Shown here in pieces: positions 1-7,695 of a DNA stretch of 7,736 nt. A model generated the notes under the pieces. The model ran no database searches. It was not told the origin of the DNA and was given only the letters and a program-made list of their open reading frames with translations. The DNA is from a virus (lineage: Duplodnaviria > Heunggongvirae > Uroviricota > Caudoviricetes), in the IMG/VR virus record IMGVR_UViG_3300029762_000084. One strand, given 5' to 3'. The position numbers were made by a program, and so were the translations under genes. How positions within the stretch are numbered: position 1 is the first letter of the stretch; the number at the start of each line of letters is the position of its first letter.

Positions 1-545
1 TCCCTGCATTCAACAAAGCACTGGCAACATTTTCAGGAAGTATCGTATCGCTCATTGCGACCAAAGTTTTACGCTATACAGCCCTAAGAACGAAAGAGCT
101 TCGTTCCATGCAATGGAAGAACGTCGATTTTGAAAACAGGATTATCACTATCGACGCCAGTGTGATGAAGGGACGCAAGATTCATGTTGTCCCGATGTCG
201 GACCAGGTGGTTGAACTTCTCACTACGCTAAGCTCCATCACTAAACCAGTATCAGAGTTTGTTTTTGCCGGGCGCAACGATAAGAAGAAGCCAATCTGCG
301 AGAACGCGGTATTGCTTGTGATCAAACAAATCGGCTATGAGGGTCTGGAAAGCGGTCACGGATTCAGGCATGAATTCAGCACAATTATGAACGAGCACGA
401 ATGGCCTGCTGACGCTATTGAAGTGCAACTGGCACATGCCAACGGCGGATCTGTGCGTGGAATTTACAACCATGCTCAGTATCTCGATAAGCGCAGAGAA
501 ATGATGCAGTGGTGGGCGGACTGGCTTGATGAAAAGGTTGAGTGA
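1..545 (+). CDS. int: Phage integrase (tyrosine recombinase), C-terminal catalytic domain; 5' end lies upstream of the window
   Basis: Frame is open from position 3 to the TGA stop at 543-545 (the track ORF 108..545 is the part after an internal Met). The translation carries the tyrosine-recombinase catalytic residues: Arg in ALRTKEL, His-x-x-Arg in HGFRHEF, and the Tyr region LAHANGGSVRGIYNHAQY. The C-terminal MMQWWADWLD is typical of P4/CP4-57-type integrases as I recall them. Confidence 0.9.
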   Translation, partial: PAFNKALATFSGSIVSLIATKVLRYTALRTKELRSMQWKNVDFENRIITIDASVMKGRKIHVVPMSDQVVELLTTLSSITKPVSEFVFAGRNDKKKPICENAVLLVIKQIGYEGLESGHGFRHEFSTIMNEHEWPADAIEVQLAHANGGSVRGIYNHAQYLDKRREMMQWWADWLDEKVE

Positions 546-626: not shown

Positions 627-2573
627 TTAAAGAATAATTCTTTCAACCTTCCAAGTTGCAGATCTACTTCCTGAAATTCCAACTCCATTTGAATCTTTGA
701 GAAGAATTCTAAATGATGTTTCTGTTACCAAATCATACGTTGCATTTATTGCTGCGCCATCTCCTATCGATATTGAGATAAAATCAGGCACAACTCCAAG
801 TCCGTGAGTTATTATTTGTCCATTTGAATAAACCCCAGTTCCTATTTTAGTCGTTGCATACCCGGCATTGTTTGCAAGGACAACATTAACCGAATTTGCT
901 CCTAATTTAGCAATCTTCCTATCAGATGAAATCTCTGTAGATTGTATTGCATTATTTGAAATAACTGCATCTTTTATAGCCCTGAAATCTCCAGGTGTTC
1001 CTGATACAGCATTAACAAGTATTGCATACTGCATACTTCTATCACTTCTTTTATTGCCGAAAGCATTACCGCAAATTGTTGTCCCGGTAAATCCAGATGC
1101 TCCCGTGTTATCAAGAAGAATTCCGCACCTATATGTATTTGATGTATCAGAAGGCAAACCTATACCTCTTATGGAATTATTGGATACTATATTATTATCT
1201 GGCTTGACATTTGCATTATTGCAGTAAATGCGAATTCCAACATCACAAAATGCATCTAATACATTATCAGATATAACATTACCCGCTCCCCACACATCAA
1301 TACCCATAAACGAATCAGCACCATCTCCAAAAAATTTATTTTGAGTAACTATTGTTCCGCTACCCCTAATCAATATAGCAGGCCTTGGAATGCTTGAAGT
1401 CTTTTTGCTATCATTGTAGCCATGATTATCGTTTATATGAGATTCCCCCCCCGCACTATCTATGCAGCAATTACACGAATCTATTATATTTTTATTTATC
1501 CTTACATAGACAGAATCGTGTTTTATACCTGTAATAAAATTTGATATGGAATTTGATACAAAACTAGTTGCCTTACATGGCAATGAAACGCCATGTATAG
1601 CGTCCTTAGACGCTCCTATGGCAACAAAATGTATCCCTGTAACAATTGCTGGGTTCTCATTAGATGATGTGTCACCTATGGTAATAGCAAAAGAATTCTC
1701 ATCTTCAGGACCATCAATTGTTAATATCGTTTGTGGCGTATATCCTTGAGATATTTGCGATCCATTTCCTGAACCAAACCCTCTCATACTTACAAAAGAT
1801 GGGATTCTTAGTTTTTCTGTTACTCTACAGTTGCCCCCCCAAAAAAATTCCTCTTTAACATGGGCAGCGGCCAGCATGATTGGAATTGTATCATCTTTAA
1901 CTCCATCAAGCGTCGCTCCATAATTTCTAAGGTCATTGGTTTCATCCCCATTTAAATAACCAATACATCTCCATCCTGTTGAGGTATATCTGGCAAATTT
2001 ATCATCTGGGGGAACAGTAAAAGGAGGAACTGTCATTTCTCCTCCAGTTATTTCATTTTCATATACCCAAAACAACCCATCATAATCTTTGATTGCGCAT
2101 CGGTTGTCACGAATGATATTTTGCTTGTCATAGTTCCCACAATATGAAAAACCAGTTGCTAATTTCTGTAGATTTGTTCCTGATGCTGAGTTTATTAATG
2201 ATGCGCCATTTTCGCTAGTTAATACATTATTTAGAGGGTCAGGATCATACTTCAGCACATTAGGAAAATAGAACTGCTGCGCACCGTACGCATCATAAAC
2301 AGCCATAGAATGGCCTTGCACGGTTACGAATTTGGCAATCTGTCCGTTATATACAGGATACCCGCCAGCGTTAATGATGATTGGCTGTGCAACAGGAACG
2401 TGAGAACCGTCTTCATTCTCTACATAAACCTGAATCTGGTTTTCAGGATTTACCGGGTCAGTGTCAATTTTTCCGATATAAATTTTGCCATTGGCAACCG
2501 CTTTAAAAGAACGCGCCATAGTGAAGAGTTGCGAAGGCATGCTTACCACAACATTTGCGGTGATATCTGACAT
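627..2573 (-). CDS. Tailspike protein: P22 gp9-type N-terminal head-binding domain plus a divergent beta-helix-like receptor-binding/depolymerase domain
   Basis: From the Met at 2573 the protein begins [59 protein letters not shown]...[15 protein letters not shown]...NVLKYDPD, which closely matches the head-binding domain of P22 tailspike gp9 as I recall it. The remaining ~530 aa is N/G/S/I/T-rich and repetitive, consistent with a parallel beta-helix. GGAG sits about 8 nt upstream of the 2573 ATG; the track ORF runs to 2621, but homology favours 2573. Stop is TAA at 627-629. Confidence 0.9.
1445..1452. repeat. Homopolymer tract C8 on + strand (G8 on the tailspike coding strand)
   Basis: Read directly: gattccccccccgcac. 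It is in frame within the tailspike and encodes the Ala-Gly-Gly-Glu of ...DSAGGESH... Confidence 0.95.
1834..1847. repeat. Compound homopolymer tract C7A7 on + strand (T7G7 on the tailspike coding strand)
   Basis: Read directly: ttgcccccccaaaaaaattc. It is in frame within the tailspike and encodes ...EEFFWGGN... Confidence 0.95.
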
Positions 2574-2694
2574 TTCATTGCTCCAGACGAATGATATGAT
2601 GCAACCATGATGTGATTGCATACCGAAATGGTACTATTGAGTATTTATCCAGTAGGTTACGATGCCATTCCACCCAACTGGTGAGGCATCAAGG
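2574..2694. promoter_or_regulatory. Divergent intergenic region between tailspike and Mnt-like gene; candidate promoter/operator region
   Basis: A 121-bp non-coding gap between two divergent start codons. It contains ATGAT(G) direct repeats and a 6-bp inverted repeat, atgcaa-N11-ttgcat, at 2599-2621. I could not identify a sigma70 -35/-10 pair with confidence by eye. Confidence 0.35.
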
Positions 2695-2961
2695 ATGTAC
2701 AGCAAATACGATGAGGCGCAGTTTCACTTGAGACTTCCGCATGAACTCCACGCGAAAATTAAGCAGCGTGCGAAGATGAATAACAGATCGCTGAACTCAG
2801 AGATAATTGCAGCGATTGAAGAATCGTTGGCTAAACAAAGCTCTGCATCCGTTTACATTGACGATGCAGAGCGTATGGCAGAACAACAATCTGATATGGT
2901 TAAGAAAATGGTTTTTGAAACGCTTAAGACCATGTATAGCAATAATAAAAAGGAAACATAG
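2695..2961 (+). CDS. mnt: Mnt-like ribbon-helix-helix transcriptional repressor (Arc/Mnt family)
   Basis: The N-terminal QFHLRLPHELHAKIKQRAKMNNRSLNSEIIAAIEESL fits the Arc/Mnt RHH pattern of beta-strand plus two helices. The C-terminal DAERMAEQQSDMVKKMVFETLK closely resembles the P22 Mnt tetramerisation region (NDAERLADEQSELVKKMVFDTLK, from memory). GAGG lies 8 nt upstream of the ATG at 2695; the track's upstream ATG at 2662 has weaker support. Stop is TAG at 2959-2961. Confidence 0.8.
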   Translation: MYSKYDEAQFHLRLPHELHAKIKQRAKMNNRSLNSEIIAAIEESLAKQSSASVYIDDAERMAEQQSDMVKKMVFETLKTMYSNNKKET

Positions 2962-3031
2962 AAATCTAGTTTCCGGCTAAAATGGCATTGCCTTCATGCT
3001 ATCCTGTGAAAAACTAAGGAGAGTTAACCAT

Positions 3032-3517
3032 ATGAAAAAATTACTGTTAATTATCCCGCTTCTGCTGGTTGGATGCGCAAAAGTAAGTGACTATCAAGCA
3101 AGTTGCGAACAACGCTATCAAAAGCTTAGCGATATGGCTAATTGCCTTGATGCCAGTGTGAAGAACGACTCACGCATGGCATCAGCACCAACACCTAAAC
3201 TATATGTCCTTGCTGCAAAGATGCTCGGGCAAGGTGTCGATGAAGGCAAGATAAGTGACGCACAGGCAAGACTTGAGCTTCAGAATCTTTATGTTCAATT
3301 ACAAAGCCAAGAACAAGCCCAACAAATAGCACAAAGCCAAGCATTCCAGCAGGCTTTATTGAATTATCAGGCTGTAAACACAATGCAAGCGATCGAGCAA
3401 AAAGCGAGACAGCCTGTTATAACTCAACCCTATCCAACACGAGTTGACACTTACACAAACTGCAATTCAGGATTTGGAAACACGGTAACATGCAACAGTA
3501 GCAGTAGCATCAGATAA
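3032..3517 (+). CDS. Putative lipoprotein of unknown function (161 aa) with a Gln-rich predicted coiled-coil centre
   Basis: AAGGAG lies about 8 nt upstream of the ATG at 3032. The N-terminus MKKLLLIIPLLLVGC is a typical signal peptide with an L-V-G-C lipobox. The residue after the lipid Cys is Ala rather than Asp, suggesting outer-membrane sorting. The mature protein has four further Cys and a Q/A-rich heptad-like segment (LELQNLYVQLQSQEQAQQIAQSQAFQQALLNYQ). The track's upstream start at 2996 has no RBS. Confidence 0.75.
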   Translation: MKKLLLIIPLLLVGCAKVSDYQASCEQRYQKLSDMANCLDASVKNDSRMASAPTPKLYVLAAKMLGQGVDEGKISDAQARLELQNLYVQLQSQEQAQQIAQSQAFQQALLNYQAVNTMQAIEQKARQPVITQPYPTRVDTYTNCNSGFGNTVTCNSSSSIR

Positions 3518-3607: not shown

Positions 3608-5605
3608 CTATTCTGACAACGAATCAGACTTCGCACCCTGCGTCAGTGCATTAATCGCTTTTTGCGCTTGCTGCATGGCTTTCTCAAACGCTGTCGATCC
3701 GCGTGGTGTGTTTGCCATTCGTAGCATTGCATTTCTGAATGGCTCACTCTCATAGGCGCGAGTAAGAAGTCCGTAGCTTACCGCTGCGCCAGTTGTCGCC
3801 GGGTTCATTGCTGTCCCATACCCGATAATGAACGGGATGGTTTGCTGCCCTGTTGGTGTTGTTACTGCCGCTTTTGCAGCCTGCTGCGTGGATTGCAGGT
3901 AGTTTTTCAATCCTTTCAGATAAGCAGCGTCCTGCCCCTTAAATGTGATGCCAGTCTGGTTTTGCAGGATGTTAAGCTGCCGAAGGAACTGGTCAGGGGA
4001 TCCGCCAGATTTCTCCATCGCCTTTCCAATGATGCCATTGCGCATTTGCGCCCTGCCAACACGACCAACTGAGTTATACAGCGTCTTAATTTCCGATTTG
4101 TTCTTGCTGAATAGCATGTTGTTGACAACTTCCGGCGTCAGGTCTCCTTTCATGAGAACATTCTTCAGCCTGGTATTCTTTAGTTTCGCCGCTTCGTCAG
4201 CGTAGACGGCATTGGCCTGCTGATATTTACGGAGAGTATCGTTGCCAAGATTCTGACCAATGGCACCATTGATATCGTCAGTCATTGCCTTGTAAACGCG
4301 CTGAATGGCAGCATCGGAACGGTTTGGTAACACTGGTCGCTCACCCTTCACGTCCATTCTGAACTGGCTGCGCAGGTCGCTTAATTGCTTCAAATCCAGA
4401 TTTACCGGACCATCAGGGCCAGCATTGCGAACAAGCTCATCACGATATGACTGAAGTTTTGAAATTGTCTCGTTATCAGCTACCTTACCAAGCTTCTGCA
4501 GATTAGATATCTCAGTATCAATCTGCTGAATTGCTCGCGCAGGCTGAATGTTTACTCCAGCCATAGCATTCTGAACCTGCTCCAGTCGATTACCGGCGGC
4601 ACGACGAATTCCTGATGTTTTCGCTTTAAGGCTGTCAATAACAACAGCTGGATCATACTCACCGAATTTATCAGCAAATCTCTGCACCAACTGGCTTCTC
4701 GCTTCCTGTTGCGTTGCTCTCATTCCGCTTGTGCCAGCCAGGGGGATATTTTCCGCTGTCGTCTGCGCCATTTTCCCGACGCGGGAAGTAGGCTGTAACA
4801 GGTCTGTGGTGTGCAGAGGAACTCCTTCACGCTCTGCAAATCTGATAGCCTGCTGCGCTTCTGGCGCAATAGCACCACGAACGCCACGATAAGCAGCACC
4901 TAATCCACGTCCGGCAGCGTTAATAGCACCGCCAGCCAGCACACCAACGCCTAAATCGGTGGCGAGTGCTTCCGCATCATCTTTCGCACTATTTGCAGCA
5001 AGTGATCCAACTGCGTTTTCAGCGAGAAGGCGAGTTGCACCCTGAGCAATTCGACCAGCAAGTGTTGGTGCCTGTGTTGCCGCTCTCTCAACGCCAGCAG
5101 GAGTGAGGTAAGGCAATGCTTCAGCAAATACCCTTCCCTCTGTCGTTTGTGGAGTCAGCGCGCCTTGCTGAAGGCCAAAGTCCTGCTCTAATCCCTGCGT
5201 TGTTACTCGTGGCGCTGGTTGATATGTACCATCGCCAATGCCGAGTTTACCGCCAGCCCAAGCCGCCGCGCTTGTTACAGCATCGGCAACTGATGCAGGT
5301 ATGTTTGCCACGTTCACGCCAGCCTGCACCAGTCCGCGACCAGTCTCTTTTACTGCTTCGCCAAGATCAGACATAAATCCACTTTGCTGTGGTTGTTGCT
5401 GTGCTACTGGTTGCTGTGTCTCCACTGGCTGCACAGATGGCAATGGATAGGCAGCATAGAAAGCTTGCTTAGCCTGCTCTGCATTTTCTCCGGCTTGCGG
5501 GGCCACGACTTCATTGAAGTATTGCTCCTGAGCCTGCGCTTTTTGTTCTGGTGCTAACGCCTGATACTGTGGAGAGGCGATAACATCTTTCCATGCTTTA
5601 GCCAT
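3608..5605 (-). CDS. DNA ejection (injection) protein, P22 gp16-like
   Basis: A 665-aa ORF that is last in a gp7-gp20-gp16-ordered block. Its ATG overlaps the upstream stop (TAATG at 5603-5607), with GGGGTGA upstream. The protein is Ala/Gln/Gly-rich and low-complexity. The assignment rests on synteny and size (P22 gp16 is about 609 aa, from memory), not on a sequence search. Confidence 0.65.
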   Translation of the reverse strand: MAKAWKDVIASPQYQALAPEQKAQAQEQYFNEVVAPQAGENAEQAKQAFYAAYPLPSVQPVETQQPVAQQQPQQSGFMSDLGEAVKETGRGLVQAGVNVANIPASVADAVTSAAAWAGGKLGIGDGTYQPAPRVTTQGLEQDFGLQQGALTPQTTEGRVFAEALPYLTPAGVERAATQAPTLAGRIAQGATRLLAENAVGSLAANSAKDDAEALATDLGVGVLAGGAINAAGRGLGAAYRGVRGAIAPEAQQAIRFAEREGVPLHTTDLLQPTSRVGKMAQTTAENIPLAGTSGMRATQQEARSQLVQRFADKFGEYDPAVVIDSLKAKTSGIRRAAGNRLEQVQNAMAGVNIQPARAIQQIDTEISNLQKLGKVADNETISKLQSYRDELVRNAGPDGPVNLDLKQLSDLRSQFRMDVKGERPVLPNRSDAAIQRVYKAMTDDINGAIGQNLGNDTLRKYQQANAVYADEAAKLKNTRLKNVLMKGDLTPEVVNNMLFSKNKSEIKTLYNSVGRVGRAQMRNGIIGKAMEKSGGSPDQFLRQLNILQNQTGITFKGQDAAYLKGLKNYLQSTQQAAKAAVTTPTGQQTIPFIIGYGTAMNPATTGAAVSYGLLTRAYESEPFRNAMLRMANTPRGSTAFEKAMQQAQKAINALTQGAKSDSLSE

Positions 5606-6993
5606 TAATCACCCCATAGTGAAGAAAAGTTACTGCTGGCTGCTGGCTGTGATACCTGTGCAGGTTGAGATTGCTGCCGCTGAGATTTACCAACATTAAC
5701 GTTATATTGTTGGTTGTAATTGTTGGTGTATTCCTTAATCTCACGAATCGACTGCTGCATAGCCTCCGGGCTTGAATAGTCAACCTGCGGCATCCCCTGA
5801 AAATACATCTTCGCTTCTGCAACGGTGTTAATACCACTGGCACCCATGTCCCTTGCTGCCGCCACACCCTGATTCTGCATTCTGCCCTGAATCCGTTGTG
5901 CTGAGTTATATAACTGGCGCTGCTCTTTTCCTGTTAATCTGCTGCGAACATCAGCACCAATTGCTGGATTACCTGCACCGCCTGTCATTCCTGTCATGAA
6001 ATCGAGAGCAGAAGCGTCTGCATTTGCGATCGCTTCGATATCCTTCTTCATGGCATAGTTTTGAGCTGATGCAGACGATGTTGCAGGCGCTGCGATTGAA
6101 CTGGCAGGAACGCGAACCATATTCCCCTCGTTGTCGATGCCTTCGTAGAACGCATTTGCCCCAGCGCCGTGAAGTTTCCCGCCAACCGTTACAGTTCTGC
6201 CATCTGATAACTGAACTGTACGCTCATCATTCCCAGCGGTTCCTCTTGTTGACGCTCGCTGCATTGCCAAATCCTGCCCGCGTCGCGCAGTAGAAGCAGA
6301 TAAGTCCTGACCGCGCATCGTGATGTTCTGGCCTCGTGCTGTTAGCGCCTCGCCAGCCTGATTGCTGCGGATTGTCTCTGCAAGTTTTCCGCGATCAATC
6401 TCACGACCAGCCATCTTGTCCTGAACATTGAAGTAATCAATCGGACCAAGAGCAGCCATTCCAAGGTGATCAACAAACTCACCAAATCCTGAAGGATTCT
6501 GCTGATACATCTGAGCAACGTTATTAGGGTCAACACCGACGCGCGCCAGCTCATTGGCGTTGTTTTGCAGCCATGATTGCATTGCTTCTGGAGAAGATGA
6601 CGCAAGACGTGCGCCAGCCGCTAATGTACCGATAGAATTACGCTGGTCTTCATCAATGAATCCCATGCCTTTACGAACGGATTCAATCTGGTCTGGATAT
6701 TGAGTAGCCAACTGACGCAAAGCACCGCGATCACCAGAAGCATAAGCATTAGCGTATGCCTGCTGAAATTCTTTCTGCCGCTGAGCCTGCTTTTCCTGCT
6801 GAAACACCACCGCAATACCTGAAAGGCCTTGCAAAGCAGTCAGCCCAACATTGTTAGCGCCTGAACGCTCAATATCATTGTTCTGCCTGATAAGCTGAAG
6901 CGTATTGCCGATGTCATTTACGCTCGGAGCGTTTGAGTTGACGCCGCCGATACCAGCCAACAATCCGCCGTTTGTTCCTTGCCAAGTAGCCAT
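5605..6993 (-). CDS. DNA ejection (injection) protein, P22 gp20-like
   Basis: A 462-aa ORF (P22 gp20 is about 471 aa, from memory) lying between the gp7-like and gp16-like genes. GGGG lies 5-8 nt upstream of the ATG at 6993. Stop is TAA at 5605-5607. Confidence 0.65.
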
Positions 6994-7002
6994 GATTACC
7001 CC

Positions 7003-7695
7003 TTAAAACAACGAGCCAAGCAATCCGATACCAGCACCAATGCCAGCGCCCCAAGGCGTTGATGTTCCCAAAAGGCTGGCAAGACCTGCACCGGCAATCG
7101 CACCAGACGTGCCACCGCTAATTGCAGTCTGAAGACTTGATGGTTTATTGGCATTAGCAGCGGCAAGTGCTGCGCTTTGCTGTGCAATGCTGCTCATGTT
7201 GTTGGCGTACGTCTGCCCGGCGTTTGCCTGACCTTGCAGCGCACCAAGCCCAACGTTTGCCAGATTGTTGTAATTGCTCATCTGATTTGATAACCAAGAC
7301 TGACCGAGAGTCGGCGCGATCGTAGCCAGTTGATTGCTTGTGGCTGTCGAACCAAGTCCACCCGTCGCCTCCGCAGCAGCAAGACTCTGGTAACGCGCCT
7401 GATCTGCAAGGTCTTTATACTGCTGAGAGTTGTAATACTGATTAAGTGCCTGCCCCTGACCTTCTAAACTGGAAAGATTCTGAAGCTGGTTAACATACTG
7501 CTCCGCAAGCGGCGTGAACGGAGCAAGGTTTTTCATGATCGTCTGCCACTGCTGATTTTGCAGGTCTGCGGCATACTTCTGGGCTTCTGCTGCATACTTT
7601 GCGCTTTTATCAGAGCTACCACCTTTCCCGCCTTTTTCAGGGCACCAAGGTTCCTCGCCGCGCAGTTTTCTGCCCAGCTTAAATGCATATAACAT
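7003..7695 (-). CDS. DNA ejection (injection) protein, P22 gp7-like
   Basis: A 230-aa ORF (P22 gp7 is about 229 aa). Its N-terminus MLYAFKLGRKLRGEEPWCPEKGGKGGSS resembles the P22 gp7 N-terminus as I recall it. The C-terminus is Gly/Ala-rich and hydrophobic (GAIAGAGLASLLG...GAGIGAGIGLLGSLF), consistent with a membrane-inserting ejection protein. GGGAGA lies upstream of the ATG at 7695. Confidence 0.7.
   Translation of the reverse strand: MLYAFKLGRKLRGEEPWCPEKGGKGGSSDKSAKYAAEAQKYAADLQNQQWQTIMKNLAPFTPLAEQYVNQLQNLSSLEGQGQALNQYYNSQQYKDLADQARYQSLAAAEATGGLGSTATSNQLATIAPTLGQSWLSNQMSNYNNLANVGLGALQGQANAGQTYANNMSSIAQQSAALAAANANKPSSLQTAISGGTSGAIAGAGLASLLGTSTPWGAGIGAGIGLLGSLF

Follow-up and report, generated by a model that had tools for sequence, protein, structure and literature searches.

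The stretch of DNA analysed here, referred to as the window, comprises 7,736 nucleotides of a Caudoviricetes virus (IMG/VR record IMGVR_UViG_3300029762_000084), and its gene content and Pfam matches identify it as the late-right end of a P22-like Escherichia coli prophage. In the window, as in the related loci, the tail module contains a single tailspike gene, encoded on the minus strand. Within this gene, CCCCCCCC at positions 1445-1452 of the plus strand corresponds, in coding orientation, to GGGGGGGG, eight consecutive G residues (hereafter G8) that form the sole homopolymer of at least 8 bases in the window. The length of this run, and with it the integrity of the tailspike reading frame, differs among closely related prophages. 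The features of the tailspike gene on which the analysis rests are as follows, with lengths in amino acids (aa):

627-2573, minus strand: tailspike gene, 648 aa, assigned by PF09008, by its relatives and by two complete-genome annotations
2238-2573, minus strand: tailspike head-binding domain, residues 1-112 (PF09008)
627-2237, minus strand: tailspike receptor-binding domain, of low guanine-cytosine (GC) content
1445..1452, minus strand: G8 homopolymer (C8 on the plus strand), codons gcG GGG GGG Gaa, encoding Ala374-Gly375-Gly376-Glu377
1433..1435, minus strand: TAA stop reached after a -1 slip (G7), computed, with a 379-aa product ending AGGNLI
1426..1428, minus strand: TAA stop reached after a +1 slip (G9), computed, with a 382-aa product ending AGGGISYKR
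1834..1847, minus strand: compound tract T7G7 (A7 at 1841-1847 and C7 at 1834-1840 on the plus strand), codons ttT TTT TGG GGG GGc, encoding Phe-Phe-Trp-Gly-Gly, residues 243-247

The longest open reading frame (ORF) of the tailspike extends from 627 to 2621 (664 aa) and is the only long ORF over the tract. The Pfam match, all relatives and two RefSeq annotations place the start 16 codons inside this frame, at the MSDIT of position 2573, and two complete genomes annotate the gene as a 648-aa 'phage head-binding domain-containing protein'. Translation probably does not include the 16-codon extension (2574-2621, minus strand) that precedes the conserved MSDIT/MTDIT start; numbering taken from the ORF list is accordingly offset by 16, such that the tract residues become 390-393 if counted from the longest ORF. 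The Pfam Head_binding profile (PF09008) matches residues 1-112 with an E-value of 2.1e-66, and sequence matches in the PDB (7sg7, 2vky, 8tvr and 2xc1, representing the Sf6, P22 and HK620 tailspikes) cover residues 1-117 only. The remaining ~530 residues constitute a receptor-binding domain with no sequence match in Pfam or the PDB, and with a GC content of 36.8% against about 50% in the ejection genes. An AlphaFold2 model of the tailspike built from a 10-sequence alignment reached a mean predicted local distance difference test (pLDDT) score of 52.6, too poor to place the tract or catalytic residues. The top Foldseek matches of this poor model were all beta-helix tailspikes (Det7, Sf6 and HK620) at template-modelling (TM) scores of only 0.19-0.28, and would support only the description 'beta-helix tailspike-like'.

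The original prediction had placed the G8 in frame inside the tailspike coding sequence and expected a +1 or -1 change to truncate the receptor-binding domain near residue 375, and the reading frame bears out both points: either shifted frame meets TAA within 3-6 codons, yielding the 379-aa (G7) and 382-aa (G9) products listed above. Both shifted products are deposited as proteins (P0024, 379 aa, EGX04329.1; P0025, 382 aa). They retain the head-binding domain and lose ~270 C-terminal residues. Exact look-ups of the G7 and G9 products predicted on five N-terminal allele backgrounds returned only these two known ones. A switch to an alternative C-terminus, as another possible outcome of slippage, was ruled out because both shifted frames end so soon. 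The G8 thus shares with contingency loci the presence of a coding mononucleotide repeat at which changes of one base in either direction shift the frame.

Tract lengths across related prophages were taken from consensus assemblies, and the census was performed via protein-cluster look-ups. Gapped scans gave too few matches; a search for the flanks TGCATAGATAGTGC N5-11 AATCTCATATAAACGA recovered 1 match in IMG/VR, 0 in JGI metagenome contigs and 0 in GTDB species-representative genomes. Tracing the short members inside the 99%-identity cluster revealed three frameshifted versions of the gene (G9, G7 and a T7G6 form of the second tract). At the DNA level, G8 was found in the window and 11 other loci, with the remaining loci carrying either G7 (L003 and L010-L012) or G9 (L004); it was also present in the 10 full-length 648-aa cluster proteins retrieved. 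The G9 state occurs in GCA_022977275.1 (L004), where the gene is called as 382 + 248 aa. The G7 state occurs in IMG/VR UViG_2529293138 (L003) as ORFs of 379 + 248 aa, the former at 2046..3185 of that record. The 379-aa product corresponds to EGX04329.1 (P0024) of E. coli STEC_MHI813 and was recovered on six contigs, among them AFDZ01000019 (GCA_000225205.2) and contigs of the SRR5031183 and SRR6061346 Logan assemblies; the three of these contigs compared at the DNA level (L010-L012) are all G7 and mutually identical. A further 222-aa protein (P0018) very probably represents another call of the ORF that lies beyond the G7 frameshift.

Pairwise comparison of matched prophages isolates the tract as the point of difference. 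The G9 locus L004 and the G8 locus L017 (GCA_001615485.1) align over 6747 bp with 0 mismatches and 1 gap, which is the tract; likewise, the G7 locus L010 and the G8 locus L020 (GCA_018682855.1) align over 6141 bp with 0 mismatches and 1 gap, again the tract. Both members of each pair share their chromosomal site and the neighbouring prophage and host genes, and the length of the tract has therefore changed while no other base in ~6 kb did. In each variant, the tract indel is the sole indel in the tailspike gene, and the other homopolymers of 6-8 bases are constant across the same 6-8 kb loci. Neither nonsense mutations nor indels outside the tracts were found in the 7 aligned DNA alleles or the 10 full-length proteins. 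This allele family is shallow, with 1-1.5% divergence and 67 variable sites in 1947. The comparison of tract length in related genomes, which the original prediction had proposed, thus reveals a polymorphism among close relatives of the kind known from contingency loci, and the G7/G8/G9 polymorphism on otherwise identical prophage backgrounds is real in public genomes.

The same gene contains the second tract, T7G7, which was absent from the original prediction. A natural T7G6 allele is present in ERR10391391 / GCA_026407645.1, where the gene is split into 251 + 404 aa and the first tract is G8. In the A35 / STEC_MHI813 clade, the G run of T7G7 is broken as GGGGTGG through a synonymous GGG-to-GGT change, a form present in L002, L003 and L019-L021.

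Dinucleotide-preserving shuffles of the window contained a G8/C8 run in 11 of 200 cases, and a G run of at least 8 bases appeared in 4% of 20,000 synonymous-codon shuffles within the tailspike gene; the run is real and mildly unusual, and statistically not striking. The receptor-binding domain is best conserved around the run, in the block SCNCCID-AG-ESH--NHGY-DS. The longer form of this block, SCNCCID-AG-ESH--NHGY-DS---S---RPAILIR (about 1400-1480, minus strand; residues about 365-390), is near-invariant in comparison with the 45%-identity homologs, and the cysteine-rich stretch, part of which is encoded by the G8, could be an active-site or metal/disulfide motif.

The phyletic distribution of the receptor-binding domain is sparse. 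It was detected in 2 of 5,426 complete E. coli genomes and, at the DNA level, in none of the cultured phages, among which only KKE7M matches at the protein level (45.9% identity). In a database of 5.8 billion sequences, nine protein clusters match, one at 99% (91 members) and eight at 45-48%. The latter bear other N-terminal adaptors (PF18668, T7 tail-fibre N-terminus), and the receptor-binding domain looks like a module exchanged between unrelated phage types. At the site of the tract, the 45%-identity homologs encode AGSE through the codons GCT GGC TCT GAG or GCW GGA AGT GAG, and the 45-48% homologs have neither a G tract at this site nor the T7G7 tract. The absence of the tract from these homologs indicates that it is specific to the E. 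coli allele family.

We interpret the G8 as an incidental hot spot of replication slippage, at which the prophage tailspike is repeatedly inactivated and could be restored, rather than as a switch maintained by selection, and assign this reading a probability of roughly 0.6. Slipped-strand mispairing at homopolymers is established in general, and at this G:C run it would, during DNA replication, add or remove one G and thereby shift the frame into the early TAA stops. As the G7 and G9 prophages differ from their G8 counterparts by a single base, the mutation rate of the site exceeds that of every other position across about 6 kb. The third independent frameshift, located at the second G tract (T7G6), also argues for such a hot spot. 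The tract itself would be a by-product of an AGSE-to-AGGE change combined with the use of GGG codons. In P22 gp9, the C-terminal part is required for trimer maturation, and mutants in gene 9 produce non-infectious tail-less heads. Since the truncated fragment loses this part, G7 and G9 are expected to be null alleles, with a 379- or 382-aa fragment that, by analogy with gp9, would be unable to form a functional trimeric spike. P22-like phages carry one spike type, an essential tailspike; an OFF state would therefore amount to non-infectious virions, and particles induced from G7 or G9 prophages would be non-infectious. Taken together, we infer slippage as the mechanism, loss of function as the effect of truncation and the absence of adaptive value; inactivation of the tailspike would be recurrent and, in principle, reversible by slippage.

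Several observations weigh against this interpretation. No interrupted version of the first tract was seen in about 20 alleles; with a divergence of only 1-1.5% among them and no more than three synonymous sites at stake, this carries little weight. A repeatedly sampled clone in which the neighbouring prophage genes are intact is fixed for G7, a pattern also expected of a tolerated or useful OFF state. Frameshifts at G tracts affect 2-3 of roughly 20 lineages, a high fraction, and they occur in both directions (+1 and -1), which speaks for more than decay. Further, G9 rests on a single assembly, the variant assemblies are of unstated sequencing platform, and the null effect of the truncated protein is carried over from P22.

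Established cases of homopolymer-mediated variation provide a frame for weighing the alternatives. In Campylobacter phages of the genus Fletchervirus, hypermutable poly-G tracts occur in receptor-binding protein genes (Sorensen et al. 2021, Cell Rep 35:109214, as cited in PMC10877375). The tailspike resembles that system in having a poly-G tract in a receptor-binding protein gene, a frame toggled by changes of one base and natural variants. The Fletchervirus phages, however, are lytic phages of a host with hypermutable poly-G tracts, with several tracts and receptor-binding proteins and heterogeneity within single stocks, whereas here one essential tailspike of a temperate coliphage carries 8 G and varies only between isolates. 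The alternative receptor-binding proteins typical of the Campylobacter phages have no counterpart in the tail module of the window or of the related loci, which encodes one tailspike. Among coliphages, homopolymers in agt and rIIA act as contingency loci in T2/T4, where frameshift nulls reverted at roughly 1,000 to 10,000 times the frequency of point mutants (Gomez, Barrick & Waters, bioRxiv 10.1101/2025.10.21.683753). As in the tailspike, runs of at least 6 bases in coliphage genes give rise to frameshift nulls through single-base changes; unlike the tailspike, the T2/T4 genes are conditionally dispensable, and a trade-off has been demonstrated for them (TgvAB against McrBC; RexAB). The same study surveyed the BASEL phages and found runs of at least 6 bases to be under-represented (0.77x) in tail-fibre-type genes, a deficit that its authors ascribe to selection against such runs in essential genes (10.1101/2025.10.21.683753). 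Outside phages, the 7C tract of glpK in Mycobacterium tuberculosis exemplifies homopolymer phase variation in a stable genome (bioRxiv 10.1101/717272). Like the tailspike tract, it is a coding G:C run of 7-8 bases with frameshift variants among near-identical isolates; demonstrated reversibility and a selectable phenotype (drug tolerance) distinguish glpK from the tailspike. Our literature search yielded no earlier account of slippage at a homopolymer in the tailspike of a P22-like phage.

These precedents lend some appeal to an evolved contingency locus, in which selection would keep the G8 because the phage or the lysogen gains from reversible ON/OFF expression of the tailspike; for instance, the OFF state could silence an O-antigen/capsule depolymerase or the output of infectious particles within a clone, with ON restoring horizontal spread. 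Natural G7, G8 and G9 states on identical backgrounds, the inheritance of G7 in a clone with otherwise intact prophage genes, a first tract unbroken in every allele seen and the occurrence of two G tracts within one low-GC gene are all consistent with it, as is the parallel with the Fletchervirus genes and with the T2/T4 loci. We nevertheless consider this explanation unlikely. The repeat is neither kept beyond chance (4-5.5% in shuffles) nor conserved across homologs, being absent from the distant ones; conservation among alleles of at least 98% identity is uninformative, as the set is too shallow for it to carry meaning; and the sister tract T7G7 has been lost in one clade through a synonymous G>T change. 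On these grounds, the on/off switch raised in the original prediction is, in the evolved sense, unsupported. Moreover, the shifted frames yield no alternative C-terminus, tail-fibre-type genes are depleted in long runs in the BASEL-phage survey (10.1101/2025.10.21.683753), and no reversion event was seen among the compared genomes, which are consensus assemblies. With one tailspike, OFF would be lethal for transmission, whereas Campylobacter phages possess several receptor-binding proteins. In E. coli proficient for mismatch repair, as we take the host of this prophage to be, a run of 8 bases is expected to slip orders of magnitude slower than classical contingency loci; our search found no directly citable run-length-specific indel rates for E. 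coli. The fullest form of the idea, a true reversible phase switch acting on the sole tailspike of a temperate coliphage, with lysogens toggling between transmissible (G8) and 'tail-less' (G7, G9) states, strikes us as quite improbable. Under it, OFF would be favoured in clones, for instance because these would produce no self-directed polysaccharide depolymerase and leave their kin uninfected, ON would be regained by slippage once horizontal spread becomes profitable, and G7 might be slightly leaky by -1 slippage on G_GGG_GGG.

That the variation could instead be technical, with the tract stably G8 in nature and G7, G9 and T7G6 representing sequencing or assembly miscalls, draws on the fact that 454, Ion Torrent and nanopore data are notoriously error-prone at homopolymers, that G9 and T7G6 rest on one data set each, and that the variants differ from their G8 relatives by nothing else, as errors would. 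We regard this as very unlikely overall: G7 is reproduced in AFDZ01000019 (NCBI), in IMG 2529293138 and in independent Logan assemblies of SRR5031183 and SRR6061346, the other 7-8-base runs in the same loci show no discrepancies, and G8 is called consistently in about 20 other assemblies. The sequencing-error hotspot that the original prediction offered as the simpler option is hence insufficient to account for a state seen repeatedly, in an assembly at NCBI, in a record of IMG and in separate assemblies of at least two SRA runs. The prediction had also named findings that would count against a switch, namely invariant tract length and non-repetitive codons at the site in homologs; the homologs do encode AGSE in non-repetitive codons, and the invariance does not hold, since assemblies differ in tract length. 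Finally, recoding, in which ribosomes shift frame or RNA polymerase slips on the G run and expression becomes leaky, would be compatible with the other readings. The G7 heptamer G GGG GGG lies in the X_XXY_YYZ register, and a -1 shift on it restores the frame with the protein unchanged (Ala-Gly-Gly-Glu), which would allow a certain amount of full-length spike to be made. A programmed frameshift stimulator downstream of the tract was ruled out, as the 91-nt RNA fold there is no better than that of shuffles (z = -0.54; 57 of 200 shuffles gave an equal or better fold), and the alternative frames of G8 stop too early for a trans-frame product. The combination of slippery site, stimulator and trans-frame product that characterizes programmed -1/+1 ribosomal frameshifting is thus not found. 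G-only heptamers are, to our knowledge, not efficient frameshift sites in E. coli, and we consider recoding highly improbable.

Beyond the tailspike, the window displays the following gene order:

7003-7695, minus strand: gp7 (PF25688)
5605-6993, minus strand: gp20 (PF16928)
3608-5605, minus strand: gp16 (PF26808 on the same-length gene in L008/L009)
2996-3517, plus strand: lipoprotein-like ORF
2662-2961, plus strand: Arc/Mnt-type repressor gene
1-545, plus strand: integrase gene, 3' part only, the remainder lying beyond the window start

The P22 gp9 family combines an N-terminal head-binding domain with a beta-helix endoglycosidase. Both the head-binding domain and the gene order, in which the tailspike follows gp7, gp20, gp16 and an immI region, agree with membership in this family. 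The tailspike resembles those of P22, Sf6 and HK620 in its 112 N-terminal residues and in its position after gp7-gp20-gp16 and an immI-type Mnt gene, and differs from them in a receptor-binding domain that lacks a sequence match in Pfam or the PDB. The immI region of the window contains only a 99-aa gene with Arc and Mnt domains (2662-2961, plus strand), located directly upstream of the tailspike; among the related prophages with the same tailspike that were compared (L001, L002, L004 and L010), this position is occupied by Arc, a second Arc and an antirepressor (Ant), indicating that the module upstream of the spike is mosaic. Between gp16 and the Mnt-like gene, the 173-aa ORF at 2996-3517 (plus strand) displays a lipoprotein-type signal, MKKLLLIIPLLLVGC, in a position typical for a moron or superinfection-exclusion gene in P22-like phages. 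Pfam offers no match to this ORF, and its sole match is phrog_6067 (unknown function), with an E-value of 9e-109.

On the other side of the tailspike, the flanks diverge among the related prophages. A full integrase gene, whose 3' part falls within the window, is arranged tail-to-tail with the tailspike in the window, L003, L007 and L010. In L001 and L002, only an 84-nt integrase 3' remnant (7306-7389) is retained, followed by host genes (ybhB-bioA and torT), and in L004 and L017 the tailspike side abuts a gene for a PBP5-type (Peptidase_S11) carboxypeptidase. These differing flanks indicate that the same tailspike is carried by prophages at at least 4 chromosomal sites.

If the tract slips as the comparisons suggest, a single base would decide whether this prophage produces infectious particles. 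Annotation pipelines would then report an intact gene for some isolates and a split one for others, and both prophage 'intactness' and host-range predictions for the family would depend on a run of 8 bases. Isolates matched as G7/G8 and G8/G9 pairs already exist and constitute a natural test of the contingency-locus idea in an essential receptor-binding gene of a temperate phage. Were the phase-switch reading true, phage contingency loci would extend to an essential virion gene of a prophage in a mismatch-repair-proficient host; if the tract is merely incidental, it would offer a small, clean example of homopolymers biasing prophage decay.

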